Shown here piece by piece: positions 1-18,990 of a stretch of DNA of 64,000 nucleotides; position 1 is the first letter of the stretch; the number at the start of each line of letters is the position of its first letter. The DNA is from Escherichia coli (GTDB lineage: Bacteria > Pseudomonadota > Gammaproteobacteria > Enterobacterales > Enterobacteriaceae): the NCBI RefSeq assembly GCF_030013205.1, contig NZ_CP122648.1; one strand, written 5' to 3'. The notes under the pieces were generated by a model. The model was not told the DNA's origin. It searched no databases and saw only the letters and a list, made by a program, of their open reading frames with translations. A program made the position numbers and the translations under genes.

Positions 1-1083
1 TACGTTACCTCGAACGGACTTCATCTTAACGGCCACGCACTGGAATTGCGTACCTTCAACCTGCTGCACGTTATAGCTGCCGTATCCAGTGACATGCACT
101 GAGCCGCTAAAAGCGTCGCCAATCAGCATGCCATTTACCCACGAATACTGTAGCACCGTCAGGTCATCACGCCCCTGTTGAGGACCGAAATGCGCTCCTA
201 ATTTGAACTTCGCCCGGTGCGCAGTGAACATTTCCTCCCTGAGTGGAGTAAGAATACCGTACCGACCATTTCCGTTTTCCAGGCGAATCATGAATTTTCC
301 GATGTCGGTTTCTACCTGGGAATAACTGGACTCCGGGTAGCTAACGGCCAGACCTACGGTCGATGCTGAGTCAGCATCCTTCACGCATAACTGGGTTTCT
401 GTCCCAGCCGTATAAATTTTCACGCCATAGGGAACGGTTACGCACGCCGTTAGTGCGGAATCTCCTGTATGGTAGTTATCCATATCCAGAGAAACACCAT
501 TTGTAGGGCTCACCAGATATTTTCCTGCTGGCCAATAGAGTACCTTAGCTCCGCAATTGGACCAGCGGTTTAGGGCAAGAGTGTCATCTGCAATACCATC
601 TCCCTTTGCTCCGAAGTGGTAAGGGGTAAGGAGATAGGTGTTGTGCTGATGTTGAGTAATAGGTACAGAATCAGCATATGGCTGTTTAACAATAACAAGC
701 GCATCTCCTAGGCCAGTGTCAGGGTTTAATAATTGCTGTCGCAACTGATCCGGGTCATACTTCAGCACATTAGGAAAATAGAACTGCTGCACACCGTATG
801 CATCATAAACAGCCATCGAATGGCCTTGCACAGTTACGAACTTGGCAATCTGTCCGTTATATACCGGGTAACCAGCCGCATTAATGATGATTGGTTGCGA
901 AACAGGAACATGAGAACCGTCTTCGTTCTCTATATAAACCTGAATCTGGTTTTCAGGATTTACAGGGTCAGTGTCAATTTTACCGATATAAATTTTGCCA
1001 TTGGCTACGGCTTTAAAAGAACGCGCCATAGTGAAAAGTTGCGAAGGCATCGATACGATCACATTGGCTGTAATGTCTGTCAT
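1..1083 (-). CDS. Tailspike protein, partial (N-terminal 361 codons; gene runs off window start)
   Basis: ATG at 1083. N-terminus [59 protein letters not shown] matches the recalled head-binding domain of P22 gp9; the rest diverges. Confidence 0.8.
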
Positions 1084-1141
1084 TTAATTTGCTCCAGATA
1101 CAATGAATCGCCGCAGCGTGGCCACGGTGAATTTTGGGCAT

Positions 1142-1164
1142 AAAAAAACCCAGCCGAAGCTGGG
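1142..1164 (-). terminator. Intrinsic terminator between ant and tailspike
   Basis: Hairpin CCCAGC-CGAA-GCTGGG with a 7-nt U-tract on the minus strand. Confidence 0.55.
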
Positions 1165-1183
1165 TCGTTGCGTTGGTTATCTG

Positions 1184-2113
1184 TCAGTAGTTATGTACTG
1201 AAGGAGGTAATTCTTTATTCTTAAGTCTCATCCATGCAGAAAGATTCGTTGGTCCGCCTGGCTCATTGATATCAACATCTCGTGTGTGGTTGATTAAAAC
1301 GTCTCTCGCCATTCCGATAACATACGAGAATTCATGACCGTAGTCGTAGCATCTGCCGGAATAGTTCGATTGAATTTGTTTTAGCGCCGGATACAGTTCG
1401 CGGAATAATGCCTGTGAGCGGTTGGCATAATCCCATAACCATACAAGGCTGTTTGCTTCTTTTGCAGAAAGCTCGTTGGTTTTCTTCTCTTGTTTGCCAA
1501 TGAACTCACCTTCAAGTGGAACTCGAGCTGCAAGTGATAGTGCTTCGGTAAACTGCTCCTCACTGATTTCTTTGTACGAACATCCAAAATGGGATTTCAG
1601 TGACGACCACATGGTGATCATCGCCTTAGCCTGTTTTTCTTTTGGCAGAGACTGACCGCGACTCATGACGAGTTGTTTAATGGCTTCCTGCTGTTCAGTG
1701 GTGATTTTACCCGGCAACGCCTTTTTAGCTTTGCGTGGGTTAACTACATGGCCTTTAGTCCAGTATTCGTAGAGCACATCGTCACACTCTTCCTGATACT
1801 GGATTACCTTGTCGCGGATTTCAGGGCGTACTTTGTTAGGGCTAATGGTTTGCAGCCAACCTGCAAGTTTGCGAAGTGCCAAACAAATAATCTCACGGCG
1901 CTGTTCATCACCTGAAAGCTGCATTGTGATTTTCACAATGGAGGTTTTAAACCGCTGCTTCATTTTCGTAAACTGTGAAGCCCAATCCATACCCATACCT
2001 TCAACGATAGGTTTCATTGGGGTGTACGGCTCACCGTTGTGATTGACGACATAAAGCTCTGCGCCGTGGAATGGCACGTTGATAGTAGATACTGCTGTTG
2101 CTATACTTTTCAT
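1184..2113 (-). CDS. ant: Phage antirepressor (Ant-like)
   Basis: 309-aa ORF immediately downstream of the arc-like gene, in the position of P22 ant; N-terminus [47 protein letters not shown] resembles the AntA antirepressor family as recalled. Confidence 0.75.
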
Positions 2114-2179
2114 GTCAGTTTTTCCTCAAAATTTACTGGCGATTTAAGCCCGAGCTACTCGCAATAGCTTGGGCTTTAC

Positions 2180-2326
2180 TCATTCTGGACAAACAATTCC
2201 ATCCTTAGCTACTGACTCCTTTAGTCTCCTCAATACCTCATTACTGAACGACCGATCATCCTTTTTCGCGGACTGCTCCAAAGCCTTTTCCAGCCATTCT
2301 GGCATCCTTAATGTCTTAACTTTCAT
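2180..2326 (-). CDS. arc: Arc-like ribbon-helix-helix repressor, 48 aa (not in ORF track)
   Basis: Translated by hand: MKVKTLRMPEWLEKALEQSAKKDDRSFSNEVLRRLKESVAKDGIVCPE, with AAGGAG RBS 5 nt upstream. Sits between the divergent mnt-like gene and ant as in P22 immI. Confidence 0.7.
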   Translation of the reverse strand: MKVKTLRMPEWLEKALEQSAKKDDRSFSNEVLRRLKESVAKDGIVCPE

Positions 2327-2430
2327 TTTTGCTCCTTTGTATGTGGTACGCATACATAGTATTTAGGTACGCATTGATAGTCAATAGATACCTACATATC
2401 CTGTGGTAAAAAATTATTCAGGATGCGCCG

Positions 2431-2682
2431 ATGTCTGATCGTAAGTACAAAAACCCTCAAGTGAATCTGAGGCTTCCTGTAGAGATAAAGGAACGTCTTA
2501 TTGAACTGGCTGAGGCTAATTCTCGTTCATTAAATGCTGAGATGGTCGCAGCACTTGAAGCATGGACCGAAAAAAACAAACACATTCAAGCACTAGATCT
2601 TGCAACTATAGCATCGCGACTGATAGAGCTTGAGCATGATGTTGAGAAGTTAAAATGCATGCATGGCAATGGTGAAAAATGA
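2431..2682 (+). CDS. mnt: Mnt-like ribbon-helix-helix repressor
   Basis: 83 aa; N-terminal NLRLPVEIKERLIELAEANSRSLNAEMVAAL resembles the recalled P22 Mnt RHH motif; divergent from arc-ant. Confidence 0.7.
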   Translation: MSDRKYKNPQVNLRLPVEIKERLIELAEANSRSLNAEMVAALEAWTEKNKHIQALDLATIASRLIELEHDVEKLKCMHGNGEK

Positions 2683-2996
2683 AACGTATCGCTATCCTAT
2701 TGCTCCTGTGTCTCTCGAGCATAGCTAACGCAGAAACAAAATCAGACGATAGCAGTTTTGATGAAATACAAGGCCTCATGATAGCTTCGAAAATGGCTGG
2801 TATGTGTGGTGCAATCAAACAAATGGCAATATTCCAAGAATCTACAAACATGCCGGGTGGGAATGAATTCTTGCAGAGATTCCTTACTACAGAGCAAGCA
2901 AGGCTTGGGATGACTCCGCAGCAATTTCTTGAAGCATGTCAGAAATCAATCTCTATTTATACCACCTATTACAATATGAGCTCTGAGAAAAAATAG
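2679..2996 (+). CDS. Secreted protein of unknown function (moron)
   Basis: 105 aa with a signal peptide MKRIAILLLLCLSSIANA. Its ATG overlaps the mnt stop (ATGA). Confidence 0.55.
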   Translation: MKRIAILLLLCLSSIANAETKSDDSSFDEIQGLMIASKMAGMCGAIKQMAIFQESTNMPGGNEFLQRFLTTEQARLGMTPQQFLEACQKSISIYTTYYNMSSEKK

Positions 2997-3005
2997 ACTA
3001 GGATT

Positions 3006-3191
3006 TCAACAACTTCCGCGTCCCTGAGTAATTCTGTCGCGGATTTGCTTCTTACGGTGATTTAAGCTGGAGAGTTTGGCTTCTGCTTCTGATATTTGCG
3101 CATCCAGATCTTTAAGTTCAAGCTCTGAAAGTCGCTGGTCAAGCAGGGTTTGGTTTAACTCAATGTTGTTCAGACGTTCTTCTATAGTCAT
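3006..3191 (-). CDS. Small coiled-coil protein, hypothetical
   Basis: 61-aa ORF with AAGGT RBS; Leu/Glu heptad-rich sequence. Confidence 0.35.
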   Translation of the reverse strand: MTIEERLNNIELNQTLLDQRLSELELKDLDAQISEAEAKLSSLNHRKKQIRDRITQGRGSC

Positions 3192-3216
3192 ATTGTTACC
3201 TTAGTGGGAGATTAGT

Positions 3217-3441
3217 ATGATTTCTGCTATTTTATCGGTGCTGCTAGCGTCATTATTCATCGGAGTGGTGTTGATCTCCCCGATGCCAATAATATCAATA
3301 TTATTCATCTTGATGATCGGCTGGTTGTGGCTTAAAAAGGCAAGAAACGATTATTTTTTATCCATAAGAGATAAGCAATTAGAGCTTTTCCGCTTGGGGT
3401 ACACTGGCGACTTGCCATTCTTAACATACCAAAAAAAGTAA
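3217..3441 (+). CDS. Small membrane protein (2 predicted TM helices), hypothetical
   Basis: 74 aa, hydrophobic N-terminal two thirds and basic tail; GGGAG RBS; followed by a terminator hairpin. Confidence 0.5.
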   Translation: MISAILSVLLASLFIGVVLISPMPIISILFILMIGWLWLKKARNDYFLSIRDKQLELFRLGYTGDLPFLTYQKK

Positions 3442-3447
3442 TAATCA

Positions 3448-3470
3448 AGCCGGTTCACTCCGGCTTTTTG
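3448..3470 (+). terminator. Intrinsic terminator after the 74-aa membrane protein gene
   Basis: Hairpin AGCCGG-TTCACT-CCGGCT followed by TTTTT. Confidence 0.5.
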
Positions 3471-3820
3471 ATATGTCGCTCGCAGAACTCAACAAGCCTG
3501 CTCATTAAGTAGCAGTAAGTCTCGTTGGCTCTTCCTGGTTCAACATCAACACCTACCCTTGAGCAGATATCGAATGCCATGTGAGCGCACTCATGGGCAA
3601 TAGTAGATAGTTTGCCATTGAACACGCCTATCACATGCAAAACACCATTCTCGCTACTCATTGTATGAGACGCTCCGTTGGCGTCCGAGTCATGCACGTC
3701 AACGCCAAGTTTTTGATGCAGGCGTTGCCATTCTGGAAAGTCTCTACAAAACACAATTGTACCGCTCTCAAAGAGCGGAACGAGCATCTTTGGTACGTTT
3801 CCAATGTTAACTTTTTTCAT
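3455..3820 (-). CDS. Small HExxH-motif protein, putative zinc metallopeptidase-like (moron)
   Basis: 121 aa containing IAHECAHMAFD (HExxH) and several Cys/His residues; AGGA RBS. No homolog recalled. Confidence 0.55.
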   Translation of the reverse strand: MKKVNIGNVPKMLVPLFESGTIVFCRDFPEWQRLHQKLGVDVHDSDANGASHTMSSENGVLHVIGVFNGKLSTIAHECAHMAFDICSRVGVDVEPGRANETYCYLMSRLVEFCERHIKKPE

Positions 3821-3850
3821 GGTATCCTGCGCAAAACTAAGGAGGTTGGT

Positions 3851-4039
3851 GTGAAGAAAAAATTTGTAAACGTTGCAAAGTGCGCAATTTTTATATTTTT
3901 TATGACCTTTTACGGATTTAGTGCCGGAGAAGGTTTCGATCGTGATGCCAATGCATTCAGTTTCTTTTGTCTGTCTATAGTGGTCATAATTGTATGGGTG
4001 GAATTAAAGCAAACATTGTTTCATGTGCTAGGGAAATAA
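3851..4039 (+). CDS. Small membrane protein (about 62 aa, GTG start), hypothetical
   Basis: Strong RBS AAGGAGG 5 nt before GTG; two hydrophobic segments (AIFIFFMTFYGF, FFCLSIVVIIVWV); AT-rich. It is the 3' part of track ORF 3635..4039. Confidence 0.4.
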   Translation: MKKKFVNVAKCAIFIFFMTFYGFSAGEGFDRDANAFSFFCLSIVVIIVWVELKQTLFHVLGK

Positions 4040-4056
4040 CCATCCATGGCTTTCCG

Positions 4057-6321
4057 TTACTTCTGGTTATCATCACTGTTCATCCAGTACATGATGCCTA
4101 GCCTTGATATGGTTTTCTTATCTGATTCTGGAAGTGAGTTGTAAAACGAGCGCCAAGCAGAAGAGCGTCTTACAGTTGTATCAACGATGCTTTCTGGTGC
4201 TTGTTTTACTGCCAGCCTTGCTGCTTTCTGGAATTCTGGTGAGCTAATTAGCTTTTCTGCAGATTCAATTGATTCAGCGCCGCCCATCGCCCTGATTTTG
4301 CTGGCGACTTTTGCCCCAATTTCTGACCCAGCAACAGCACCTACTGCACTGAACGGTCCTGACACAGTTGAACCAACCGCAGTGCCAATGCGTTGGGCAT
4401 GGTTAGCAACAAATTCATTTGCCGCAGTGACGCGATTAAACCGTTTGACGAACTCGTTTAGTCTTCCTGTAGTTATCTCGTAAGATTTTGCGTCTTTGAT
4501 AGCCTTTGCGACCTTATATACATCGTTCAGACCTGACATAGTCTCTTTTGGTAAATGTCGGGCAAGATTGCGCATCTGCCCGTTTGCTAACATGTTTTGA
4601 TACCAGTCAGCAAACCCTGCAGGATTAAAATCAGCGCCACGTTTTCCGTTCGAAAGCATATCCCGAAGACCTGTTCCCAGTAGCTCGGTTCTTAGCTTCC
4701 TGGACGGCGTGTTTTGCATCAATTCACGAAATCCTTTGGCATCGCCTTTCGACATTGCCTGTAGTGCTGTAGTTGCTTTGCGAGAAACATCACCGTTCAG
4801 CGTTCTGCCAGTTAGATTAATCATTTGCTCTTCCATGCTTTTTCGCATCTGAACAAGCCTCTGAGCAACTTCAAAATCACGTAATGCATTTGTCTCTGAC
4901 AGCGCCGCCTTTTGATCATCGGCGAGCGAACCGTAAAGCCTCGATAAAGCAGCGCGATCAGCATCTTTATATGGTCCAGAATTCTTATGAAGTGCATCAC
5001 CAACAAGTCGTCGTTGCTTATTGAGATTTGCATAAGTTAATGCGCCGTTCTTGCCTGGATTAATTGCCCGAAAGACTCTCTTTTCAATAGGGTCAAGGTT
5101 TTTCATCCCGCCAAGATCTTCTGCCACCTGTTTGAGCATTGACCTTGTTGATGGCGCATCAATTTTTGCACCTGCAGGCATCGCCTTTTCAACATTGCGA
5201 TAAAGCTGGTCGCTTCGTTTCATCAGCGCAGACATTCTTCCATTGACCGTATCAATAAACTTGTCGCTCATACCAAGAGCATCTTTTGCACCGGAAACGC
5301 GATCAATTATCTCCCCCGCGCCCTGTGCTAGCTGCCTGATTGCTTCATTTTCCTGCACCTGTAGAGCAGAACCCGCACGGGACTTGATTGCTTGCTCAAC
5401 TGCCTTGTATTGCTCGTTCCCGGAAAAGTGTGAAGGGAGTAATGAATCAACATTAAGCCTTTCAGCAGACTCCAGAACTTCAGCCTGAGGATTGATATCT
5501 AGTTCATCAAGCGATGAAGCGAGATTTGGCCTTTTTTGTGCTGCTACTGTGCGAACGACTTCCTCTGGGTTCCTCGTCGCAGGAGTCATTGGTACACCTT
5601 GTGCTGCTCTTGCCTCTGCGGCATGAACCGCAGGATTTGTTGCCTCTGCGGCATCACCGGAGAATGGTGATGTTTCTGTTGGCGCAGTGGTCGCTCTCTG
5701 TGCAGATGTTTTATTGCCACTAATTATATTTGATGCACCACGAACACCACGGGTAACGCCATTTATCAGGCCATGCGTAGCAATGTTAAGTCCGGCATTA
5801 ATAGCGGCATTTTCGGCAAAATCACCCTCCTGATTTGCAGCATCAGCAAGAGAACCTGCAATCATGTTTCCTGCGGAACCGATGTCTCCTGCGAGCTTTG
5901 CTGGCGCTCCAGCAACTTTTGCCGCTGTGCCAATTGGCAGGAGATACCCACCAATTGTTTCACCGGCTTGCGCCCAAGGGTCTGTCGGTCGATCGACAGG
6001 GCGATAAACATCATCCAAAACCTTGGGGCCACCAAGCCCCTGGCTGATTGCATTAATCAGACTTGCGCCACCCTGCAATACGTCAAATGGTATGTTTACC
6101 AGACCACGACCAGCCTGTTCTGCAATTTGCCCTGCGCTTTGACCACCAGTGAGCCAGTCAGTAGCTTTTCCCACCAGAGATTGTTCTTCTGGCTGCGATT
6201 GGTTTTGAGTGGATTGATCACCAGAAGACAGCATCTGAGCAATGCGACGTGCTCCCTCAGTATCGCCGGCAGCATCAGCATTCCTTAACGCCGTCATCAA
6301 CTGTTCACGACTATAGGCCAT
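4057..6321 (-). CDS. DNA ejection/transfer protein (P22 gp16-like by synteny)
   Basis: 754-aa ORF directly downstream of the gp20-like gene; Gly/Ala-rich segments. Confidence 0.7.
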
Positions 6322-7706
6322 TACTGCTCTCCGAGATATTTGCTAATTAATTCGTCATCGGACAATTGCTGTTGAGGTTGGCTATCGCCATAACTTGAGG
6401 AAAGAAAACGTTTTGCCGCAGAGTTCAATGACTCACCCTTCTTAACATCCATCCCCATGATGTTTCGGTTGCGATCAGATTGTCCTGGGCTGCCATTTGC
6501 ACTCATCCACTCTGACTTAAACTCGTTGAACTTCGCGTTATTACTTTCCATTTTTGCCATACCCCTTAACCATCGAGCCATGACCATTGGATTATCCGTT
6601 TCGCTTGGAATGCCTTTCCTTGCAAACTCAATATCCTTATCTGATGCAGGGCCGGGAGGGAGAAGCTTGGTTGCCTGCGCATTGGCTAGTTGGTTGAATC
6701 TAATCCGCATATCTCGGAGGTAGTTATCTTGCCCCGTAAGCTTAGAGAACATATTTTCAGCGTTACCGAACAAACCAGGAGTTGGCTTCTCCTTCTCCAG
6801 CGTGTCAGCGAGCGTTGTCATTGAATCGGCAGCATTACGACTAGCTGCCGCATCACCTGCTGATTTTTCTATAGCCTTTTCCATGTTCACTGATAATTTT
6901 GGCGCTGCATTAATAAGTTTCTCGGCCTTTTTTTGTGCCTGTTGTACTTCAAAACCGAATTTCTGCTTATCAAGTGCCAGTCTTTCTGCTGCAAGTCCGT
7001 GTCCGGTCATTGCAGACTGATAGGAAAGGTTTTGCCCCCTAATAGCCCTCGCATTCGTCATGTCATTATTGCGAATGGTTTCGTTAATTCTTTGCTGTTC
7101 CTGCTGGCGACCAACCATCTTATCCTGAACAGCAAACGCCTTTTCTGGTCCAAGCGCACCGAGAGACATAGTAGTCAGCATGTGTGATAGCTGCTCTGGA
7201 TTCTGGATACCTGTCTGAATCATCCAGTCAGCATTAGCACCAACGCGATTTAACCTGTCCTTGTTGTCAGTAATGAATTTACTGTAGGCTTCCGGCCCCT
7301 GAGAAAGAGCGACGTTAGCTCTCATGGCTAAATCGCCCATATCGTTGCGTTGCTGATCATTAAGACCTGAAAAAGCCTGTTGTGCCTGTGCAACAAACGC
7401 TGGATTTTCCTGGGCAAACTTAAATAGTCCCGATGGATCACCAGAAGCCCATGCATCAGCGTGAACCTTATTGAACGCCCTAATCGCTTTCTGTTGCTGT
7501 TCCTGCTTATAAATATCAGCAACTCCAGCCAGACCACGTAACGCGGTCAGACTAACGTTATTTGCACCTGATCGAGACAGTTCATTGTTTTCGCGGATCA
7601 GACCAAGCGTTGCATTAATGTCGCTTGCCTTTGGCGCATTCTCGTTTTGCGCACCAATGCCAGCCAGAAAACCACCAGAATTAATACCCTGTTGCCACGT
7701 AGCCAT
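6321..7706 (-). CDS. DNA ejection/transfer protein (P22 gp20-like)
   Basis: 461 aa, the size of P22 gp20, in the gp7-gp20-gp16 order. Confidence 0.7.
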
Positions 7707-7716
7707 TGATTACCCC

Positions 7717-8409
7717 TTAAAACAGTGAACCAAGCAGACCAAGACCAGCACCGATACCAGCACCCCACGGAGTTGATAGCTCGAGAGCACTGGCTATGCC
7801 ACCACCCAAAAGCGCACCGGATGCAGCACCACTAACCCCCTGCTGCAATGCTGACGGTCGGTTGGCATTTGCCGCAGCCAGCGCCGCGCTTTGCTGTGAA
7901 ATCTGACTCATGTTGTTGGCATATGTTTGCCCGGCGTTTGCCTGCCCCTGAAGAGCGCCAAGACCGATATTTGCCAGGTTGTTGTAATTGTTCATTTGTC
8001 CAGATAGCCATTGCTGACCAAGCGTTGGTGCGATTGTTGCTAACTGATTACTGGTTGCGGTGGAACCCAATCCACCTGTTGCTTCCGCTGCCGCAAGACT
8101 CTGATAGCGAGCCTGACCTGAAAGGTCTTTATACTGCTGAGAGTTGTAATACTGGTTAAGTGCCTGACCTTGCCCTTCCAGAGACGATAAGTTCTCGAGG
8201 CTGCCGACATACTTATCAGCCAGAGGAGTAAACGGCTTCAGGTTGTTCATGATGGTGTTGAACTGCTGATTTTGCAGGTCTGCTGCATACTTCTGAGCTT
8301 CTGCGGCATACTTTGCACTTTTATCAGAACTGCCACCTTTCCCGCCTTTTTCAGGGCAATAAGGTTCCTCGCCGCGCAGTTTTCTGCCCAGCTTAAATGC
8401 ATATAACAT
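7717..8409 (-). CDS. DNA ejection/transfer protein (P22 gp7-like)
   Basis: 230 aa starting MLYAFKLGRKLRGEEP with a Gly-rich C-terminus, recalled as typical of P22-like gp7. Confidence 0.7.
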   Translation of the reverse strand: MLYAFKLGRKLRGEEPYCPEKGGKGGSSDKSAKYAAEAQKYAADLQNQQFNTIMNNLKPFTPLADKYVGSLENLSSLEGQGQALNQYYNSQQYKDLSGQARYQSLAAAEATGGLGSTATSNQLATIAPTLGQQWLSGQMNNYNNLANIGLGALQGQANAGQTYANNMSQISQQSAALAAANANRPSALQQGVSGAASGALLGGGIASALELSTPWGAGIGAGLGLLGSLF

Positions 8410-11092: not shown

Positions 11093-11110
11093 GCTTAATG
11101 CTCCGATAGG

Positions 11111-12004: not shown

Positions 12005-12094
12005 TTGTTACCCCTGTTTACTCGATGTTCAGCCCATCGGAAGGCAATAGGGTGCCAGGCCTCATAAAGACAGCCATTGCACGTTATGGGTTAA

Positions 12095-14293
12095 TTACTG
12101 CTGTGGTTGTTGCTGAGTTGATTTTTGCAGGATGCTGCTGATGTCCATGCGCTGCGCATGGCCCTGTGCCTGACTTTTCAGGACAAGCTCTGCATCAGCA
12201 CGGGCATTGTCTCCTTGCTGTTGCTGGAACTGTCCGAGCAGTTTCAGCGCCTCACGGATATCAGATTTCTGCTGACTATCGGCAGATGCGAGTATTTTCA
12301 CAACATTTGCCGCTGCAACCTGAGCATCAGTCTGTGCCTGGAATGCTTTAACCTGAATGGCTGCCTGTTCGTTCTGCGCTTTCTGCAATTCAGCCTGACC
12401 AGCAAGAAGCTGACCTTGCGCTGCAACCATAGCCGGATCTGGCTGACTGGCCTGTTGTTGTTTCGCCTGTTCAACCATCTGCTGTTCTTCTGGCGTTCTC
12501 GGCTTGATAACTCCAGACAGAAGCAACTGATTGCGGTTGTATTCTTTAAGGTCGTCCATCCCTTCGCCGTCCATATTGTCGAGGATCATCGACGATACAA
12601 GGTCGTGTTTCGGCGTTCCGGGCGGGATAAGTGCCAGCATGGAAAGTAACGACTTAACCGTTGCATCACGGCGAGTAGCGAACGACTGACCAACATCGAC
12701 AGTCACTTCATAGTTACCCTGCGAAAGGTCGTTAAGCGCGATAACCTGCCCTGTCTGACGGTCAACCACTTCACCAGTCATCAGCGCCACGTCATCGCTG
12801 CCGTCCTCATTAACGATACGCATCGGCGTATCACTGCCATAGACCTCACGCGCCATAGAAAGCCACACAACGCCAGCGCGACGCATGGATTTAGCCATGT
12901 TGTCCATGTAGATATAGGACTGCGTGTCCATCCGGTTAAAAATGCTATCAACGGTATCGGTGGCGACGTTGCTCGGCATGTTCTCAAGCTGCGACGCACC
13001 TGTAATTTGCTGAATAGCCGTTCCGGTGTACTGCAATAGCCCGGCAAGAGCTGGAGGCATTTGTGTCGGAGGCGTATAACTGCTGACCTGAGCCTGCGCA
13101 GTAATATCTCCGTTTTTGTTTTTCAGACTGACCATCGGCAGGAACGCCGGGCGCTTTTTGTTGCGCTCCGCCCAATGAGTGGCGAGAGGACCAGGAATCA
13201 TGTCAACATCAACTACAGGAATGCCATCACCGCCAGCCTGAGTAGCGTTATCTGCAATCATGGAAACCATCAGGTTCTCAAGACGCTGTGCATCCATCGC
13301 TTTTGCTGCGTGACCTTCGATTCGCTCCTGATTATCAACAAATGATCGACGCCCATATACCGGGATGAGAGGAATATGTTCGCCCGGAATACGCTTCGGT
13401 TCTTCCAGCCATTCAGCGCCAGACAGAAGACCGCAATAAACGCGGCGCTTCTTCACCGTTCGCTCGCCAATCAGTTCGAATGCACCATCGGTCAGCTCGT
13501 CGACAATATCTTTGATTTGCTCTTCATCATAAATTGCCGTTTCTCCGCTAACAGGGTTGCGCCACGCCGTGAGCTTCACCTTCTCTATGCGAACTTCGTA
13601 GTAGCGTCCAACATAGATGGCATCGGGCGTTGACCAGTCATACTGAGTACCAGTGTCATCACGAGAAAGGCTTGCTGCGATGGAATCAGGGTATTCAGCC
13701 TCGAACGCTTTGGGCGTCATGGAGAACATTTCCATAGCCCACATAGCATCAGAGCGGTCATATTGCTTGCTGTCCTGATCGAAGAAGACGCATGTCGCTG
13801 GGTCGTAAACAGGAAGAAGGCTGATGCGTCGCTGCTCGTTACTCGGATCCATTTCATCTTCGTAATCGGCACACATGCGGAAACAACCGAATCCGCCCGT
13901 TACAGCATCATCAAATGCGTTATCACACGCTTCACCACCGGATGTTTCCTGATAGTCAGCGCGGAATTTACCATTCATCTTTTCGGCTAACGCTTCCGAT
14001 GCCTTATCGTCCTTCGGCCTGAATTTAACGCTGATGCGATTCTGTCGATACTCGCCAATGATGCGATCACATTCACGGGCAATCTTATTCAGTTCAAAGC
14101 GCGGGTAATGCTCAAACCTGCCTTCATCAAATGAGTAACCAGCGTTTGTGCTGCCTTCCCACTGTGCGCCGGATACCCGGACGAAACGTTGAGCCTCAAT
14201 AATCTGCTCACGCATATCCTGCGTTGCTGACCAGGCATTATCAAAGTTGCACAGCACCTTGCGATGCCAGTCAGTCATCTTTTTTTCTGCCAT
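12095..14293 (-). CDS. Portal protein, P22 gp1-like
   Basis: 732 aa; C-terminal PRTPEEQQMVEQAKQQQASQPDPAMVAAQGQLLAGQAELQKAQNEQ closely resembles the recalled P22 portal barrel region. Confidence 0.9.
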   Translation of the reverse strand: MAEKKMTDWHRKVLCNFDNAWSATQDMREQIIEAQRFVRVSGAQWEGSTNAGYSFDEGRFEHYPRFELNKIARECDRIIGEYRQNRISVKFRPKDDKASEALAEKMNGKFRADYQETSGGEACDNAFDDAVTGGFGCFRMCADYEDEMDPSNEQRRISLLPVYDPATCVFFDQDSKQYDRSDAMWAMEMFSMTPKAFEAEYPDSIAASLSRDDTGTQYDWSTPDAIYVGRYYEVRIEKVKLTAWRNPVSGETAIYDEEQIKDIVDELTDGAFELIGERTVKKRRVYCGLLSGAEWLEEPKRIPGEHIPLIPVYGRRSFVDNQERIEGHAAKAMDAQRLENLMVSMIADNATQAGGDGIPVVDVDMIPGPLATHWAERNKKRPAFLPMVSLKNKNGDITAQAQVSSYTPPTQMPPALAGLLQYTGTAIQQITGASQLENMPSNVATDTVDSIFNRMDTQSYIYMDNMAKSMRRAGVVWLSMAREVYGSDTPMRIVNEDGSDDVALMTGEVVDRQTGQVIALNDLSQGNYEVTVDVGQSFATRRDATVKSLLSMLALIPPGTPKHDLVSSMILDNMDGEGMDDLKEYNRNQLLLSGVIKPRTPEEQQMVEQAKQQQASQPDPAMVAAQGQLLAGQAELQKAQNEQAAIQVKAFQAQTDAQVAAANVVKILASADSQQKSDIREALKLLGQFQQQQGDNARADAELVLKSQAQGHAQRMDISSILQKSTQQQPQQ

Positions 14294-14294
14294 A

Positions 14295-15710
14295 TCAACC
14301 TACACCACAAGGAATTGAGTAACTGGAATAGTCGGGTTGCGCAGCCGACTCTGGGCAATGCATACACATCATCAGCGCATCAGCCAGGTTAGGAGATGGA
14401 ATACCGAGCTTCTGCTTCATTTCGACCTTAGTCATAAGCTCCAGCTTCCCGTTGTTATTGAATTTGCGCTGAATCTGCGTCAGTTCTGCAAACAGCTTCT
14501 CCAGCATCTTCTCGCCTATCGCTTCTTTGTCAAAACTCAGCATGTCGTCGGGGTCCGCATACTCACCGTGAACAACCGCCCGATATGTCAGATACAGCCT
14601 GTCAGCCAGCGCGTAATAGAATTGCGCTCGCTTATTGCGGAATACATCGCCAATAGTGCGAACGTTGTCGCCCTGTACGGCTTCATCAGCCCATGCTCCG
14701 GCCTGATAAGGCGAATCTTCATCAAATGGCGATTCGCTGCCCTTGAACATCGTGGCGGTGATTTTCTTACCGGAGAACGCTTCCGCTGTCTGTCTGCGTA
14801 GACCTGCACCAACACCATCACCATCCCACAGGTAATGGTCAGCGCCGTCTTCAATAGCCAGCGAAGTAGCCCAGTCAGCACCCTCGTTGATGTCCATCAG
14901 CAGGCCTTCGGCAATGCGCTTAACAACCGAACCGTGACGCGATGCATAACCTTTAGCATCTGGCCCTGTATCTGATGGGTCATGTGCAGAAACAACCGCG
15001 CCTTTCGCTTTCCATCCGAGTTTCTTGTGCGCATCGGTTGCGGCTTCAAGCCATTCACGTTTGATGATTGCCATATCACTTGCGCTTACTGGCTCACCAA
15101 GCCAGATGTGACGATACAGTGTCTGATTTCTGCGTTTACACTCTTCCATCTCCAGACGGAGAACTTCAGGAAAATGCGGGTTGTCGGTGTAGTTCACCGT
15201 CAGCAGGCAAATATCATCGGGAGGATTTACAACGAATCGCTGATAGGTATCGTCGAGGATGTTCTTCGGGTTAAAGCTCACCCATATTTCGGAAAACGGC
15301 TTGCGGATGGTTGGTATCAGGATGTCCCATGATTCCTTTGTTACCGCTTCCGCTTCTTCCACCCAGCAGATATCAATGCCTTCTAGCGATTTAATCTTCG
15401 TTGGGTTGTTTTTTATGCCGTAGAACATGAATTCAGCATTCGTTCCGAGATGACGAATCATTGAACGCTGAATTTCAAACTCAGCCGAATACCCTTCACG
15501 CTCGATGGTGTCTTCAAGCAACCGGATTACCGAATCGCTGATACTGTTTTGCAGTTCACGAGCGCAGAGAATACGCACAGGCTGCCGACGCGCCGCTTCA
15601 ACAAGCAGCCTCGCAATTGCCCATGACTTACCGCTACCTCGACCGCCTTTGGCGACTTTGTAGCGATGCGCCTCAATGAACGGTTCAAAGATAGGATTAA
15701 TCGAGGTCAT
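14295..15710 (-). CDS. Terminase large subunit
   Basis: 471 aa with Walker A-like KGGRGSGKS near the N-terminus; sits between terS and portal. Confidence 0.9.
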   Translation of the reverse strand: MTSINPIFEPFIEAHRYKVAKGGRGSGKSWAIARLLVEAARRQPVRILCARELQNSISDSVIRLLEDTIEREGYSAEFEIQRSMIRHLGTNAEFMFYGIKNNPTKIKSLEGIDICWVEEAEAVTKESWDILIPTIRKPFSEIWVSFNPKNILDDTYQRFVVNPPDDICLLTVNYTDNPHFPEVLRLEMEECKRRNQTLYRHIWLGEPVSASDMAIIKREWLEAATDAHKKLGWKAKGAVVSAHDPSDTGPDAKGYASRHGSVVKRIAEGLLMDINEGADWATSLAIEDGADHYLWDGDGVGAGLRRQTAEAFSGKKITATMFKGSESPFDEDSPYQAGAWADEAVQGDNVRTIGDVFRNKRAQFYYALADRLYLTYRAVVHGEYADPDDMLSFDKEAIGEKMLEKLFAELTQIQRKFNNNGKLELMTKVEMKQKLGIPSPNLADALMMCMHCPESAAQPDYSSYSIPCGVG

Positions 15711-16147
15711 TTTCCGAATAGAGTGCTCATCGGTGATGTTTCAATCTGAATTGCGCCGCCGTCTTTGCCTGTTAGCTCGTGATCAACCTTGTCGCGCCAT
15801 TTATCCTTCTGTCGGTTCTTAAGCCAGAAGATGGCAGCGGTTGTATCAGGCGGGTAATACTTCTCAAGCGGAGTTTCGACAATTCTGTTTTCAATAACAC
15901 GAATATCGATGTCTGGAGCCACGAAGCCCATAGCGCGTTGATAAAGACGATCACTAACTTCTGCATCAGCGACGGCCTTACCCTTTTTTATGGACTCCGA
16001 AAACTTAGGATAATCAATCTTCCACTTGTTAATAGTTGACTCACTGACTTCAAAGAAATCAGCAAGTTCTGCATCGGTGTAGCCCAGCAAGCACAGTTTG
16101 CGTGCCTGTTCGGCATACGCCTCTTGATACTTTGTTGGGCGCGCCAT
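15707..16147 (-). CDS. Terminase small subunit
   Basis: 146 aa with N-terminal HTH-like region, overlapping the terL start. Confidence 0.8.
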   Translation of the reverse strand: MARPTKYQEAYAEQARKLCLLGYTDAELADFFEVSESTINKWKIDYPKFSESIKKGKAVADAEVSDRLYQRAMGFVAPDIDIRVIENRIVETPLEKYYPPDTTAAIFWLKNRQKDKWRDKVDHELTGKDGGAIQIETSPMSTLFGK

Positions 16148-16149
16148 GT

Positions 16150-16392
16150 TTATGCTCCGGTGGTGAACAGGTCTAACGCTTCCTTCGATTTACGCACCGC
16201 TTCGATAGTGCGGGTCGTGATATCCGAATTAGCGCCGCCTGACTGGAAGTGAATTTTGAATAGTTCAAGCTTCAGCTCGTCAGTGCCAATGAACTGAAAT
16301 GCTTCTTCTGCGGCTGCGTTCTGGTTCATGACCAGTTTGTAAATCTCTAACTGGAATTTCTGTTCTTCAGTCATGGGAATAATCTCTGCCAT
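16150..16392 (-). CDS. Hypothetical phage protein upstream of terS
   Basis: 80-aa ORF tightly packed against terS. Confidence 0.45.
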   Translation of the reverse strand: MAEIIPMTEEQKFQLEIYKLVMNQNAAAEEAFQFIGTDELKLELFKIHFQSGGANSDITTRTIEAVRKSKEALDLFTTGA

Positions 16393-16495
16393 TGTTGGCT
16401 CCGTTTATCCGTTAAAAGGGATATCAGTTAAGTTATCCCGTGTAGGGTATAAGCCATTATCAAAGCCACTCTGTAGGGAATGGCTTTTGTAATAA

Positions 16496-16876
16496 CTACT
16501 GTTCGCTTAGCTTCTGCTTCAGCAAGTAACCTTCGAGCATCCAGATTTTGTTTACAGCATTCTGCCGGGCAATCTTCCGACCAATTTCTGCATCAAAGTT
16601 TTCCGGGCTTGCACAGGCACTCTCTCCGGTAACGGTGAAGCCATTCTTCAGCACCAGTACGCAGAAAGTGAGCAACTTCAATGGTGATAAATCACGATCG
16701 CCTTCTTCTGGTTTTTCCCTGCCACAATATTCGTTGCTGGAAATGGCACCATTTCGTCCATCATAAGCAGTAAAGTAATGCTCGCTTTTAATCACGTCTT
16801 CGATGTGCTGCGGGGTGATTCGCGGTGCCGTTTTGCCTTTCTCAACGATTTCTTTTTCGATTTGCTGGTCGTTCAT
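16496..16876 (-). CDS. Phage protein of unknown function (possibly Gp49/Sf6 gp66-like)
   Basis: 126-aa ORF between the lysis remnant and terS; family assignment is recalled from position only and is unverified. Confidence 0.5.
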   Translation of the reverse strand: MNDQQIEKEIVEKGKTAPRITPQHIEDVIKSEHYFTAYDGRNGAISSNEYCGREKPEEGDRDLSPLKLLTFCVLVLKNGFTVTGESACASPENFDAEIGRKIARQNAVNKIWMLEGYLLKQKLSEQ

Positions 16877-17114
16877 AATTATGACCCTGTGGAGTGGTTG
16901 CTTGATTAGGATGTCTTTCCATCAGTCCGCCACCACAAAGAATCTTTTTTGCCATAAGGCTGGAGGTTCATCTTTCAGTGGCTGCCAGTGTTATTTCCCC
17001 ACTTACTGGCTTGGGTTGTTTCGCTGTACTGCCGTAACTGGTTACCCAGAATAAATTTTGGTTTCATTATCAAGCCCATCCGTAGATAGGCTTTGTAATG
17101 AACTGGCTCTTATC

Positions 17115-17267
17115 TCAACGCAGCCCCTTACCGCGCGCCAGATGCTCAATATCAAGCATCAGCAATGAGATGTTTAATCTGGATTCACTCCAGAAGTGAT
17201 CACCACCCTGTCTACAGAGCCAGATGTGAAGGATGATGAGTAGAATTATCGCTATCATCGAAGGCAT
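17115..17267 (-). CDS. Possible small ORF (50 aa) downstream of Rz remnant
   Basis: Hand translation MPSMIAIILLIILHIWLCRQGGDHFWSESRLNISLLMLDIEHLARGKGLR with AGGA RBS; start overlaps the Rz stop. Could be spurious. Confidence 0.25.
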   Translation of the reverse strand: MPSMIAIILLIILHIWLCRQGGDHFWSESRLNISLLMLDIEHLARGKGLR

Positions 17268-17480
17268 TGCGTCCTGATGTACTCCTGCAGGTAGTTAACC
17301 TGCGCGGTTATCCTGTCGATTCCACTTCGGAGACGGTAATAATTGAGTTCAGCATCTGCTGTAAGTCTTGGGCTTTCTCCATCGCCCATGCCGCTGGCTC
17401 TGGTCGTTGACTTTGCACAGGTGGCGGCGACTTGCAGGCGCTTACGACCAGCAGAAACATCAGCACGGAGACTTTCGATA
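17255..17480 (-). pseudogene. Rz: Rz (i-spanin) remnant, C-terminal part only
   Basis: ESLRADVSAGRKRLQVAATCAKSTTRASGMGDGESPRLTADAELNYYRLRSGIDRITAQVNYLQEYIRTQCLR aligns with the recalled lambda Rz C-terminus. The upstream part of the ORF has no Rz-like TM/N-terminal region and overlaps xis antisense. Confidence 0.65.
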
Positions 17481-17499
17481 TCGAAGCAGAGGACATCAA
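17308..17499 (-). CDS. Rz1: Rz1-like o-spanin lipoprotein, embedded in Rz frame +1
   Basis: Signal peptide with lipobox (LLVVSAC) followed by a proline-rich segment KSPPPVQSQRPEPAAW; the true start may be an internal Met. Confidence 0.65.
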   Translation of the reverse strand: MMSSASISKVSVLMFLLVVSACKSPPPVQSQRPEPAAWAMEKAQDLQQMLNSIITVSEVESTG

Positions 17500-17587
17500 C
17501 GACTGCTATAACCACTGGATGATATGGGCGCAGATAGCGCATGCAGACGTAACAAATATTCGAATTGAAGAACTGAAAGAACACCAA

Positions 17588-17608
17588 ACCGCCTGATGGC
17601 GGTTTTTT
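17588..17608 (+). terminator. Terminator-like hairpin upstream of xis
   Basis: ACCGCC-TGAT-GGCGGT followed by TTTTTT. Confidence 0.4.
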
Positions 17609-17635
17609 CTTGCGTGTAATTGCGGAGACTTTGCG

Positions 17636-17854
17636 ATGTACTTGACACTTCAGGAGTGGAACGCACGCCAGCGGCGCCCAAGAAGCCTTGAAACAGTTCG
17701 TCGATGGGTACGCGAGTGCAGGATATTCCCTCCTCCGGTTAAGGATGGAAGAGAGTATCTGTTCCACGAATCAGCGGTAAAGGTTGACTTAAATCGACCA
17801 ATAACAGGTAGCCTTTTGAAGAGGATCGGAAATGGGAAGAAGGCGAAGTCATGA
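17636..17854 (+). CDS. xis: Excisionase, lambda Xis-type
   Basis: 72 aa, MYLTLQEWNARQRRPRSLETVRRWVRECRIFPPPVKDGREYLFHESAVKVDLNRPITGSLLKRIGNGKKAKS matches recalled lambda Xis; overlaps the int start. Confidence 0.93.
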   Translation: MYLTLQEWNARQRRPRSLETVRRWVRECRIFPPPVKDGREYLFHESAVKVDLNRPITGSLLKRIGNGKKAKS

Positions 17855-18902
17855 GCGCCGGGATTTACCCCCTAACCTTTATATAAGAAACAATGGATAT
17901 TACTGCTACAGGGACCCAAGGACGGGTAAAGAGTTTGGATTAGGCCGAGACAGGCGAATCGCAATCACTGAAGCTATACAGGCCAACATTGAGTTATTTT
18001 CAGGACACAAACACAAGCCTCTGACAGCGAGAATCAACAGTGATAATTCTGTTACGTTACATTCATGGCTTGATCGCTACGAAAAAATCCTCGCCAGCAG
18101 AGGAATCAAGCAGAAGACACTCATAAATTACATGAGCAAAATTAAAGCAATAAGGAGGGGGCTACCTGATGTTCCACTTGAAGACATCACCACAAAAGAA
18201 ATTGCGGCAATGCTCAATGGATACATAGACGAGGGCAAGGCGGCGTCAGCCAAGTTAATCAGATCAACACTGAGCGATGCATTCCGAGAGGCAATAGCTG
18301 AAGGCCATATAACAATAAACCCGGTCGCTGCCACTCGCGCTGCAAAATCAGAGGTAAGGAGATCAAGACTTACGGCTGACGAATACCTGAAAATTTATCA
18401 AGCAGCAGAATCATCACCATGTTGGCTCAGACTTGCAATGGAACTGGCTGTTGTTACCGGGCAGCGAGTTGGTGATTTATGCGAAATGAAGTGGTCTGAT
18501 ATCGTAGATGGATATCTTTATGTCGAGCAAAGCAAAACAGGTGTAAAAATTGCCATCCCTACAACATTGCATGTTGATGCTCTCGGGATATCAATGAAGG
18601 AAACACTTGATAAATGCAAAGAGATTCTTGGCGGAGAAACCATAATTGCATCTACTCGTCGTGAACCGCTTTCATCCGGCACAGTATCAAGGTATTTTAT
18701 GCGCGCACGAAAAGCATCAGGTCTTTCCTTCGAAGGGGATCCGCCCACCTTTCACGAGTTGCGCAGTTTGTCTGCAAGACTCTATGAGAAGCAGATAAGC
18801 GATAAGTTTGCTCAACATCTTCTCGGGCATAAGTCGGACACCATGGCATCACAGTATCGTGACGACAGAGGCAGGGAGTGGGACAAAATTGAAATCAAAT
18901 AA
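17832..18902 (+). CDS. int: Tyrosine integrase, lambda Int-type
   Basis: 356 aa, near-identical to recalled lambda Int from MGRRRSHERRDLPPNLYIRNNGYYCYRDPRTGKEFGLGRDRRIA to HLLGHKSDTMASQYRDDRGREWDKIEIK. Confidence 0.95.
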   Translation: MGRRRSHERRDLPPNLYIRNNGYYCYRDPRTGKEFGLGRDRRIAITEAIQANIELFSGHKHKPLTARINSDNSVTLHSWLDRYEKILASRGIKQKTLINYMSKIKAIRRGLPDVPLEDITTKEIAAMLNGYIDEGKAASAKLIRSTLSDAFREAIAEGHITINPVAATRAAKSEVRRSRLTADEYLKIYQAAESSPCWLRLAMELAVVTGQRVGDLCEMKWSDIVDGYLYVEQSKTGVKIAIPTTLHVDALGISMKETLDKCKEILGGETIIASTRREPLSSGTVSRYFMRARKASGLSFEGDPPTFHELRSLSARLYEKQISDKFAQHLLGHKSDTMASQYRDDRGREWDKIEIK

Positions 18903-18990
18903 TGATTTTATTTTGACTGATAGTGACCTGTTCGTTGCAACAAATTGATAAGCAATGCTTTTTTATAATGCCAACTTAGTATAAAAAAGC
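18903..18990. other. attL: lambda P' arm plus 15-bp core TTAGTATAAAAAAGC (core at 18976-18990)
   Basis: Sequence after the int stop matches the recalled lambda attP P' arm (GATTTTATTTTGACTGATAGTGACCTGTTCGTTGCAACAAATTGATAAGCAATGCTTTTTTATAATGCCAAC) and ends in the reverse complement of the GCTTTTTTATACTAA core; bacterial DNA toward ybhC follows. Confidence 0.85.

Follow-up and report, generated by a model that had tools for sequence, protein, structure and literature searches.

Huey (PQ850609.1) and JEP4 (MT740315.1) are complete podophages of 38.6-39.2 kb that combine a P22-like virion module with lambda-type int/xis/attP, and this integration module is also found in the free P22-like podophage vB_EcoP-720R6. 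CUS-3 (CP000711.1) and Sf101 (NC_027398.1) belong to the genus Lederbergvirus; CUS-3 has another integration site, another integrase and an endosialidase tailspike, unlike the element described below. Among defective lambdoid prophages, DLP12, Rac, Qin and e14 of Escherichia coli K-12 are att-bounded remnants in which internal deletions have removed essential modules, and they yield no phage. These cryptic prophages are old and common to many strains. Here, we highlight a remnant at the lambda attachment site of E. coli ETEC4079, which is very probably a defective, recently decayed P22-like (Lederbergvirus-type) prophage, shaped by two illegitimate-recombination events and without domestication.

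The window, i.e., the whole stretch of 64,000 nucleotides that was analysed, is a 100% match to the ETEC4079 chromosome (NZ_CP122643.1); the host strain is a pig E. coli, and its clone is porcine. From att core to att core the remnant measures 20.36 kb, and it lies between ybhB/bio and ybhC, beginning 1,370 bp leftward of the window edge. The 15-bp attL core (GCTTTTTTATACTAA) is exact at 18976-18990 (chance expectation 0 in the att search), and the host gene ybhC starts at 19037. The attR core carries one mismatch and adjoins ybhB outside the left window edge. In L001 coordinates the two cores occupy 10630-10644 and 30976-30990, with ybhB and ybhC on the flanks, and the arms of both att sites are conserved. 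The placement of a prophage at the lambda attachment site, made in an earlier sequence-only reading, is thus borne out by both cores, while the left limit given there, position 1, was merely the window edge, which cuts the tailspike gene. The tailspike CDS extends 989 bp past this edge (L001 11011-13083), and the attR core follows about 370 bp beyond it. The features within the window are as follows.

1-1083, minus strand: tailspike, first 361 of 690 codons (PGAP; PHROG tailspike families match the N-terminal ~230 aa)
1184-2113, minus strand: ant, antirepressor of the immI region, 309 aa, intact ORF (phrog_245 anti-repressor Ant, E=1e-97)
2180-2326, minus strand: arc-like ribbon-helix-helix repressor, co-directional with ant (PGAP 'Arc family'; phrog_228)
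2431-2682, plus strand: mnt-like ribbon-helix-helix repressor, divergent from arc-ant (PGAP 'Arc family'; PHROG Arc/Mnt-like families)
2679-2996, plus strand: accessory ORF between mnt and gene 16, 105 aa
3006-3191, minus strand: accessory ORF between mnt and gene 16, 61 aa
3217-3441, plus strand: accessory ORF between mnt and gene 16, 74 aa, no match
3455-3820, minus strand: accessory ORF between mnt and gene 16, 121 aa, no Pfam match
4057-6321, minus strand: gene 16-type ejection (DNA transfer) protein, intact 754-codon ORF (phrog_770 over residues 5-707)
6321-7706, minus strand: gene 20-type ejection protein, 461 aa (phrog_917, E=4e-181)
7717-8409, minus strand: gene 7-type ejection protein, 230 aa (phrog_598, E=2e-99)
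8412-8870, minus strand: gene 14-type head assembly protein, DUF2824 (phrog_651, E=2e-77; PGAP)
8867-9778, minus strand: tail needle, gp26 type with Sf6/HS1-type knob, 5' end and start codon lost (phrog_1030, phrog_1219)
9777-9779: junction B, needle joined to the first ~20 nt of a small post-coat ORF (BLAST maps, three-way alignment)
9839-11092, minus strand: coat protein, 417 aa, CUS-3/Sf6 type, intact (phrog_283)
11111-12004, minus strand: scaffolding protein, intact (phrog_648)
12095-14293, minus strand: portal protein, intact (phrog_156, E=2e-229)
14295-15710, minus strand: large terminase (terL), intact (phrog_3717, phrog_2)
15707-16147, minus strand: small terminase (terS), intact (phrog_309, E=2e-67)
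16150-16392, minus strand: small late-region ORF, DUF2560 (PGAP; phrog_571/phrog_322 matches for the pair with the next ORF)
16496-16876, minus strand: small late-region ORF, Gp49 family (PGAP; phrog_571/phrog_322 as above)
17255-17480, minus strand: 3' remnant of spanin Rz/Rz1 (PGAP: both partial pseudogenes)
17479-17480: junction A, mid-Rz head-to-head with the last early-left ORF (BLAST maps, three-way alignment)
17480-17596, plus strand: 3' remnant of the last early-left operon ORF (93.5% identical to CUS-3 40052-40189; PGAP partial, N-terminus missing)
17636-17854, plus strand: xis, lambda type (69/72 aa identical to lambda Xis)
17832-18902, plus strand: int, lambda type, full length (351/356 aa identical to lambda Int, gap-free)
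18903-18990: attL, lambda P' arm and 15-bp core (exact core match, sequence read, annotation)

Read from attL, the minus strand carries terS, terL, portal, scaffold, coat, needle, gp14, gp7, gp20, gp16, immI and tailspike. The late genes all have strong PHROG matches and are 95-98% identical in DNA to the P22-like phages CUS-3, Huey and Sf101, which agrees with the earlier description of a P22-like late module in P22 order. Gene order from coat to terS is that of CUS-3 at 96.5% DNA identity, and the coat gene has the length of its CUS-3 counterpart (96.5% DNA identity). Over 9778-15795 the CUS-3/Sf6-type terS-terL-portal-scaffold-coat block is 97.6% identical in DNA to that of Huey, and the small late-region ORFs are the same in Huey and JEP4. 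The int/xis/attP modules of these two phages are 98.4% identical to that of the element, with the same attP core, whereas the receptor-binding part of the tailspike, gp16, gp20 and immI are of other mosaic types. The gp16 sequence is 94% identical to residues 205-911 of Sf101 gp13 and colinear with CUS-3 gp16; it lacks the extra N-terminal transglycosylase domain of ~200 aa present in Sf101 gp13. PGAP marks gene 16 partly as a pseudogene, although its ORF is intact. All retained virion ORFs are full length, an observation that, taken alone, is also compatible with selection.

Int, Xis and the att core proved to be lambda-type as had been read, their DNA being 98.0% identical to lambda J02459 27724-29114, and excision of the element may still be possible given Int and Xis in trans. 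The free phages Huey, JEP4 and 720R6 carry these modules together, and the combination is therefore normal lambdoid mosaicism, although the sequence-only reading had called it chimeric, a word suggesting something unusual. At the opposite end, tailspike residues 1-113 form a complete Pfam Head_binding domain, followed by a pectate-lyase-like stretch, and a terminator-like hairpin lies 3' of ant (1147-1166). The divergent promoter-like sites of immI, at 2356-2384 (minus strand) and 2374-2402 (plus strand) in the promoter scan, appear intact. The accessory ORFs (2679-3820) match phrog_19844, phrog_7586 and phrog_1365, families without assigned function, and have no credible defence match in PADLOC; neither known defence genes nor Rfam RNAs were found in the element.

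The virion gene set had been taken for a full capsid/packaging set, but it is incomplete because gp4, gp10 and the 5' end of the needle gene are deleted. Compared with CUS-3 and Huey, junction B lacks ~2.08 kb (gp4, gp10, the small ORF and the needle 5' end), i.e., CUS-3 14255-16336 and Huey 30145-32224. The needle ORF is 13-14 codons short at its beginning, its translation opens mid-protein, and the upstream ATG is in another reading frame; homology to the needle genes of CUS-3 and EC581 ends 40-42 nt before the starts of those genes. The proteins gp4 and gp10 make up the tail body and the tailspike attachment site, and the needle N-terminus serves as the plug that keeps packaged DNA from falling out (PMC3741392). 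Junction B is present at full length in one of the 5,426 complete E. coli genomes, and homology elsewhere breaks exactly there. This second join (~9778) had gone unremarked in the earlier reading.

Between the starts of xis (17636) and terS (16147) we measured 1,489 bp, close to the ~1.5 kb previously noted, and this closeness is attributed to an illegitimate deletion of about 16-17 kb. The interval holds the DUF2560 and Gp49 ORFs, the Rz/Rz1 remnant and the early-left ORF remnant, the last being followed by a hairpin terminator (17586-17605, terminator scan). The two small ORFs occupy their customary place between lysis genes and terS and are colinear with Huey. The Rz remnant aligns with CUS-3 23904-24291 at 98.5% identity (CUS-3 Rz, 24066-24503); ~212 nt of Rz are lost, as is the start of Rz1. 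At junction A, homology to CUS-3 stops at 24291 and restarts at 40052 with only 'TA' shared, and the missing DNA amounts to ~15.8 kb on the CUS-3 scale or 17.3 kb on that of Huey, where it comprises lysis, regulatory, replication and recombination genes. One of 5,426 complete E. coli genomes covers junction A in full; the others match only to query position 154. The 20.36 kb between the att cores are fully accounted for and hold no early or lysis genes elsewhere, which upholds the earlier claim that recombination, immunity, replication and lysis genes are lost.

A crude consensus search for sigma-70-like promoters found none on either strand of 16100-19100, where 4.3 were expected from shuffles. 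Neither a promoter for the late genes nor a regulator was found in the element; the late genes are likely to be transcriptionally silent.

We propose that the parent would have been an ordinary lambdoid mosaic of ~40 kb, with a P22/CUS-3-type virion and lambda-type int-xis-attP. The sizes add up to such a phage (20.36 + ~17.3 + ~2.1 = ~39.8 kb; Huey 38.6 kb, CUS-3 40.2 kb). The present state was very probably produced by two illegitimate-recombination events, random deletions that left no IS scar, shared at most 1-2 bp and together took away about 18 kb. The event at junction A removed ~16-17 kb, namely the recombination genes, cro/cI/N, the replication genes, the nin region, Q, the late promoter, the holin, the endolysin and most of Rz; that at junction B removed ~2.1 kb, comprising gp4, gp10 and the part of the needle gene that encodes the plug. 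The remainder would be unable to replicate, to lyse the cell or to build a DNA-retaining, tailspike-bearing particle, and would have lost its own expression regulators. That the remaining ORFs for head, ejection, tailspike, immI and int/xis are intact would reflect the very recent date of these events, not selection.

Comparison with clone-mates places this decay in a wider series. Over ~5 kb of the right flank, W13-16 and ETEC4068 have 0 mismatches to ETEC4079, and flank gene products (RefSeq WP numbers) are common to W13-16, ETEC4068, K_EC180, P15-25 and EC581. Besides that of ETEC4079, the lambda site shows at least five architectures in these clone-mates: the W13-16 remnant joins the needle to the early-left region, that of ETEC4068 is IS2-associated, those of K_EC180 and P15-25, each with its own breakpoints, join ejection-gene fragments to a DnaB-helicase fragment and early-left genes, and the prophage of EC581 is nearly complete and still carries gp4, gp10, Q and lysis genes. 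Across these genomes, int/xis, tailspike, ant, gp16 sequence and accessory ORFs are identical or near-identical to those of ETEC4079, and ~4 kb (3000-7000) are the same in W13-16. All six architectures inspected retain int/xis, ant/arc/mnt and gp16 sequence, and the tailspike is intact in five, its gene being split in EC581; clone-mates differ by swaps of the arc-mnt segment and of parts of ant. That the ends are kept in every architecture seen in the clone could hint at selection there. The P22-type heads of EC581 have no DNA similarity to those of ETEC4079, which alone among the clone-mates compared has the CUS-3-type head module; with heads so unlike, the history must include more than simple deletion from one ancestor.

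This pattern of retention could also reflect partial domestication, in which the tail-end block (tailspike, ant/arc/mnt, accessory ORFs and gp16) and int/xis are kept for a host benefit such as superinfection exclusion, antirepressor cross-talk with lambdoid prophages or O-antigen processing. The shared block, its identity in W13-16 and the seemingly intact immI promoters fit this idea, which we nevertheless regard as unlikely: deletions confined within the element, sparing ybhB/bio and ybhC, retain both ends by geometry, while the split EC581 tailspike, the swapped arc-mnt and ant segments and the accessory ORFs without match to known defence families speak against domestication. The clone is very young, as the flank without mismatches attests, and retention is therefore uninformative on selection. 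The proposal that the remnant is a candidate for domesticated functions has found no support, as both junctions are private to one genome, both cut genes and clone-mates are found in different deletion states. Decay at this site is fast and ongoing.

It is highly improbable that the 20-kb element acts as a helper-dependent, satellite-like 'mini-P22', excised and packaged upon infection by a related helper and spreading parasitically. Its intact Int and Xis, the conserved att arms and the intact terS, terL, portal, scaffold and coat ORFs would be suited to such a life, and further P22-like/lambdoid matching places exist in ETEC4079 (2-3 places in the record), but regulator, replication origin or gene, late promoter and Q target are all absent, and the architecture occurs in a single genome of the 5,426. 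The junctions cut Rz, Rz1, the early-left ORF and the needle, whereas known satellites are modular, and 20 kb, about half a P22 headful with no means of forming concatemers, would probably make a poor packaging substrate. Those other matching places in ETEC4079 are repeats that might confuse an assembler, so that collapsed or mis-joined reads of two related prophages could have created one or both junctions. We find this scarcely credible, given that the record is a closed complete genome, that the junctions lie outside repeats and join unrelated sequences sharing at most 2 bp, and that independently assembled clone-mates have deletions of a similar kind at this site, though not the same ones.

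Under recent decay by illegitimate recombination, each junction may represent a simple internal deletion or a more complex event in which a second P22-like phage took part, the latter option being kept open by the difference between the head module and that of the near-complete EC581 prophage. Unlike the K-12 remnants, the ETEC4079 element is private to one strain and its clone-mates are in other states, and the site is of mild interest as a natural series of decay states inside one clone.

The element at the lambda attachment site of E. coli ETEC4079 is bounded by att sites, lacks essential modules and carries genes truncated at its breakpoints, as is typical of a defective (cryptic) prophage. 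The sequence-only reading had recognised it as such from the missing early and lysis modules, and rightly so; the element is more damaged than that reading supposed. Over its first 21 kb, the window matches the ETEC4079 chromosome (NZ_CP122643.1; pig faeces, Belgium) with 100% identity. A core search found the exact 15-bp lambda core, GCTTTTTTATACTAA, at window 18976-18990 (attL) and a one-mismatch core, GCCTTTTTATACTAA, at 10630-10644 of L001, the window extended by 12 kb on either side (attR; 0 expected by chance in both cases). This attR lies outside the window, 1,370 bp to its left, so that of the extent first proposed, 1-18990, the right limit stands, where the core ends, whereas position 1 is the edge of the window and not of the prophage. 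The att-to-att length is 20,361 bp, and the flanks, ybhB/bioA on the left and ybhC on the right, correspond to the classical lambda insertion point. Read directly, the sequence between int and the attL core is the lambda P' arm, and on the attR side about 210 bp can be aligned with the lambda P arm. Because the attR core mismatch falls on the phage-arm side, outside the 7-bp overlap described for lambda, we infer that the att sites would still be usable.

Integration and excision genes (window coordinates)
17832-18902, plus strand: int, full-length tyrosine integrase, 351/356 amino acids identical to lambda Int without gaps
17636-17854, plus strand: xis, 69/72 amino acids identical to lambda Xis, overlapping the int start (17832)

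Together with the exact attL core and the DNA from xis to the core, which is 98.0% identical to lambda J02459 27724-29114, these genes bear out the lambda-type assignment made earlier. The late genes, in contrast to this lambda-type module, are P22-like.

P22-like late genes (window coordinates unless stated; each with a strong PHROG match)
15707-16147, minus strand: terS
14295-15710, minus strand: terL
12095-14293, minus strand: portal
11111-12004, minus strand: scaffold
9839-11092, minus strand: coat
8867 to about 9778, minus strand: tail needle, 5'-truncated
8412-8870, minus strand: gp14
7717-8409, minus strand: gp7 ejection protein
6321-7706, minus strand: gp20 ejection protein
4057-6321, minus strand: gp16 ejection protein
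L001 11011-13083 (window 1-1083 plus 989 bp leftwards), minus strand: tailspike

The order is that of P22, terS-terL-portal-scaffold-coat-needle-gp14-gp7-gp20-gp16-immI-tailspike, with gp4 and gp10 absent and the needle gene 5'-truncated, so the element is a derivative of the P22-like (Lederbergvirus-type) family and not a complete member of it. From coat to terS the DNA is 96.5% identical to phage CUS-3 and 97.6% identical to phage Huey, and the head genes are exactly as long as their CUS-3 counterparts; on these identities and the PHROG matches, the P22-like content and order described earlier were largely right. The same reading had called the element chimeric. The mixture of modules is real; it is not unusual, since the P22-like podophages Huey, JEP4 and vB_EcoP-720R6 share this lambda-type int/xis/attP, with about 98% identity. 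This module is also common to HK97, HK106 and 434, and its combination with P22-like genes is standard lambdoid mosaicism and not the product of a deletion.

Two junctions account for the damage. Junction A lies between xis and terS, which are 1,489 bp apart, in agreement with the earlier estimate of about 1.5 kb. On its Rz/Rz1 side, the sequence follows CUS-3 as far as CUS-3 24291, within the phage Rz gene (24066-24503). Beyond the join at window 17479/17480 it matches CUS-3 40052-40189 instead, which is the 3' portion of the ORF that ends the early-left operon. The two partners share 'TA' alone, with no IS scar. The loss at the 5' ends amounts to about 212 nt for Rz and about 50 nt for the early-left ORF, and it includes the start of Rz1; PGAP marks all three as partial. 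The missing stretch measures 17.3 kb on the Huey map and 15.8 kb on that of CUS-3, and comprises the endolysin, holin, late promoter region, Q, nin, replication, cro, cI, N and recombination genes. The early and lysis genes, whose absence from this place the sequence-only reading had noted, are not annotated elsewhere between the att cores or in the window, where only the Rz/Rz1 and early-left 3' remnants are found; the arrangement which that reading had named as speaking against it is therefore not present.

Junction B had been overlooked. Homology to CUS-3 on the coat side stops at window 9778 (CUS-3 16336), about 20 nt past the start of the small ORF that follows coat, and resumes at CUS-3 14255, 42 nt into the needle gene; when the clone-mate EC581 serves as reference for the needle, 40 nt of the 5' end are absent. 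The missing 2,081 bp (CUS-3) or 2,079 bp (Huey) hold the small ORF, gp4 and gp10. The tail body to which the tailspikes bind consists of twelve gp4 and six gp10 molecules, and the N-terminal end of the needle forms the plug that keeps packaged DNA from falling out (PMC3741392). With gp4, gp10 and the start of the needle lost, the virion set is therefore incomplete, and the full capsid and packaging set that had been claimed does not exist. A new needle protein made by in-frame fusion was considered and rejected: the remaining needle frame opens in the middle of the protein without a native start, and the upstream ATG, which belongs to the small ORF, is not in frame with it. The junction could be a simple internal deletion of 2.1 kb, or else a larger illegitimate join of two phage genomes, for example in a tandem lysogen; the functional outcome is the same under either origin. 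The 20.36 kb of the element and both missing stretches add up to about 39.8 kb, a normal size for this type of phage. IS-mediated deletion was rejected for ETEC4079, as neither junction bears an IS scar, in contrast to the clone-mate ETEC4068, which has IS2 at its breakpoint.

A third lesion, in gp16, was also examined and rejected. PGAP annotates only 5074-6189 of this gene, as a partial 'lytic transglycosylase' pseudogene, but the 754-codon ORF is intact, abuts gp20 and is colinear with CUS-3 gp16. Its product is 94% identical to residues 205-911 of gp13 of phage Sf101 and differs in the absence of the extra N-terminal domain of the Sf101 type. It is probably a mosaic variant, and the pseudogene flag a false alarm raised by comparison with longer Sf101-type homologues. 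The tailspike gene has 690 codons, the first 361 of which lie inside the window. Its product begins with a head-binding domain (Pfam Head_binding PF09008 over residues 1-113 of 113, E=4e-66) followed by a pectate-lyase-like stretch, and no tailspike family of PHROG v4 matches the C-terminal ~420 amino acids over their length. This receptor-binding part may represent a poorly sampled type specific to a porcine serogroup.

Between gp16 and the tailspike lie the immI region and a few small ORFs.

immI region (window coordinates; each with a strong PHROG match)
2431-2682, plus strand: mnt, divergent from arc-ant
2180-2326, minus strand: arc
1184-2113, minus strand: ant

This is the immI layout, ant with arc and mnt divergent. 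Divergent promoter-like sites are found at 2356-2402 and a terminator after ant, and the region may still be expressed. The top promoter-like site of immI lies at 2079-2107 on the plus strand (10/12, extended -10 TG), inside the 5' end of ant and antisense to it, a position at which P22 has its sar antisense RNA promoter. Structured RNAs, a sar-like antisense RNA included, gave 0 Rfam matches at gathering thresholds in window 1-19100. The small accessory ORFs (2679-3820) fall into PHROGs of unassigned function; they match no Pfam family and no PADLOC defence family, apart from weak coiled-coil noise. One of them, a 121-amino-acid ORF at 3455-3820 on the minus strand (phrog_1365; no Pfam or PADLOC match), carries an HExxH-like motif (HECAH). 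Of the five clone-mates inspected, four have it conserved; in P15-25 it is not annotated.

No sigma-70-like promoter was found on either strand of 16100-19100, against 4.3 expected in shuffles, and none lies upstream of terS. With Q and the late promoter gone, the head genes are most likely silent. The routes by which lambda expresses int and xis need pL, N and cII; these are gone, so both genes are left without the expression routes known for lambda. Because both att sites, Int and Xis are intact, excision of the element would probably still be possible with Int and Xis provided in trans.

In order to assess how widespread this architecture is, probes of 301 bp and 361 bp spanning the two joins were searched against 5,426 complete E. 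coli genomes. Each probe was fully covered in ETEC4079 only, 1 of the 5,426; in thousands of other genomes, homology ends exactly at the breakpoint (probe position 154 for junction A, 179 for junction B). A probe from the tail-end block, by comparison, led to a set of porcine strains that share this insertion. Across about 5 kb of the right flank, base-by-base comparison gave 0 mismatches between ETEC4079 and W13-16 and likewise between ETEC4079 and ETEC4068, and long identical stretches occur inside the element too, for instance at window 3000-7000 against W13-16; these strains form one young clone. It is a clone of porcine ETEC/edema-disease E. coli; the strain name 'ETEC4079' occurs in none of the papers searched.

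State of the prophage in clone-mates (extracted locus in brackets)
W13-16 (L005): shorter needle fragment joined to the early-left genes cIII, kil, erf, ssb and abc2; no head genes
ETEC4068 (L006): everything past gp16 gone, IS2 copies at the breakpoint; about 13.6 kb
K_EC180 (L007): fragments of ejection genes, joined to part of a DnaB-helicase gene and to early-left genes
P15-25 (L010): like K_EC180, with different details
EC581 (L011): near-complete prophage that has gp4 and gp10, the lysis genes, Q and the nin genes, but a split tailspike gene

At least six architectures of one prophage thus exist at att-lambda in this porcine clone, from near-complete (EC581) to about 13.6 kb (ETEC4068). 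They cannot be derived from each other as a single series, so several independent events must have occurred in a very short time. Deletion was not the only process involved. The head module of EC581 (L011 35084-41435) is P22-type, with longer terS, terL and coat, and shows no DNA similarity to the CUS-3/Sf6-type head at window 9839-16147; one of these heads must therefore have come in through module replacement. Mismatches between ETEC4079 and W13-16 are patchy, with 128 in gp7-gp14 (7500-8500), 47 in ant (1000-1861) and 23 in the int region (17600-19000), yet none in 4 kb elsewhere, and the arc-mnt segment 1861-2642 is a wholesale replacement. Such a distribution suggests that, once the two strains had split, other phages recombined with the remnants in patches, and agrees with the exchange of DNA between temperate phages and defective prophages described in the literature (PMC3945230). 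Taken together, the unlike head modules and the clustered differences indicate that recombination with P22-like phages also shaped these remnants. Both the 21-kb query and the junction probes match two to three places in ETEC4079, which therefore carries P22-like coat/needle and lambdoid Rz sequence in at least one further locus, perhaps in a second prophage able to recombine with the remnant or to complement it.

The sequence-only reading had proposed the element as a candidate for domestication. This is not supported, as each junction occurs in a single genome of the 5,426 and the architectures of the clone-mates differ; a conserved architecture across diverged strains was not found among these genomes. 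A complete particle set with its expression and release is likewise not present, since gp4, gp10, the needle start, holin, endolysin, Q and the late promoter are gone. Neither does the element resemble a phage satellite (PICI or capsid-forming PICI), for it has no regulator or replication gene and its breakpoints fall inside genes. A further possibility would be that selection has kept the two ends, the block of tailspike, immI, accessory ORFs and gp16 together with int-xis, as a module of benefit to the host, or that the remnant serves as a recombination reservoir for P22-like phages, or both. The benefit could then consist of antirepressor cross-talk with other lambdoid prophages or of the exclusion of related phages, and a reservoir would mean that incoming P22-like phages repeatedly swap segments with the remnant. 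Such a reservoir role would be compatible with the patchy divergence among clone-mates and with the foreign head module of ETEC4079. The pattern of architectures, on the other hand, agrees with rapid decay and speaks against a unit that is conserved and selected, and we consider retention by selection or as a reservoir very improbable. The ETEC4079 element is a further, unremarkable defective lambdoid prophage of a well-known kind. For its annotation, the apparent full virion module has to be corrected to one without gp4, gp10 and the needle start. The one feature of some wider interest is the set of decay states within one clone, a natural time series for the rate and the mechanisms of prophage decay, with illegitimate deletion, IS2-associated loss and patchy recombination with other phages all on view.

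Beyond the element, the window holds ordinary chromosome, from ybhC to gal, tol-pal, cyd and a methylaspartate cluster. An array of five tRNA genes (four Lys, one Val) at 44357-45052 has six members in ETEC4068, which indicates that the copy number of this tandem array changes within the clone; the RtT sRNA beside it is annotated in ETEC4068 and K_EC180 and not in ETEC4079. A low-GC stretch (35-37% GC) at 54000-57000 contains two hypothetical genes just upstream of the methylaspartate mutase/ammonia-lyase cluster, and at 62860-63960 a DUF4387 gene is split by a copy of IS1 (63062-63759).
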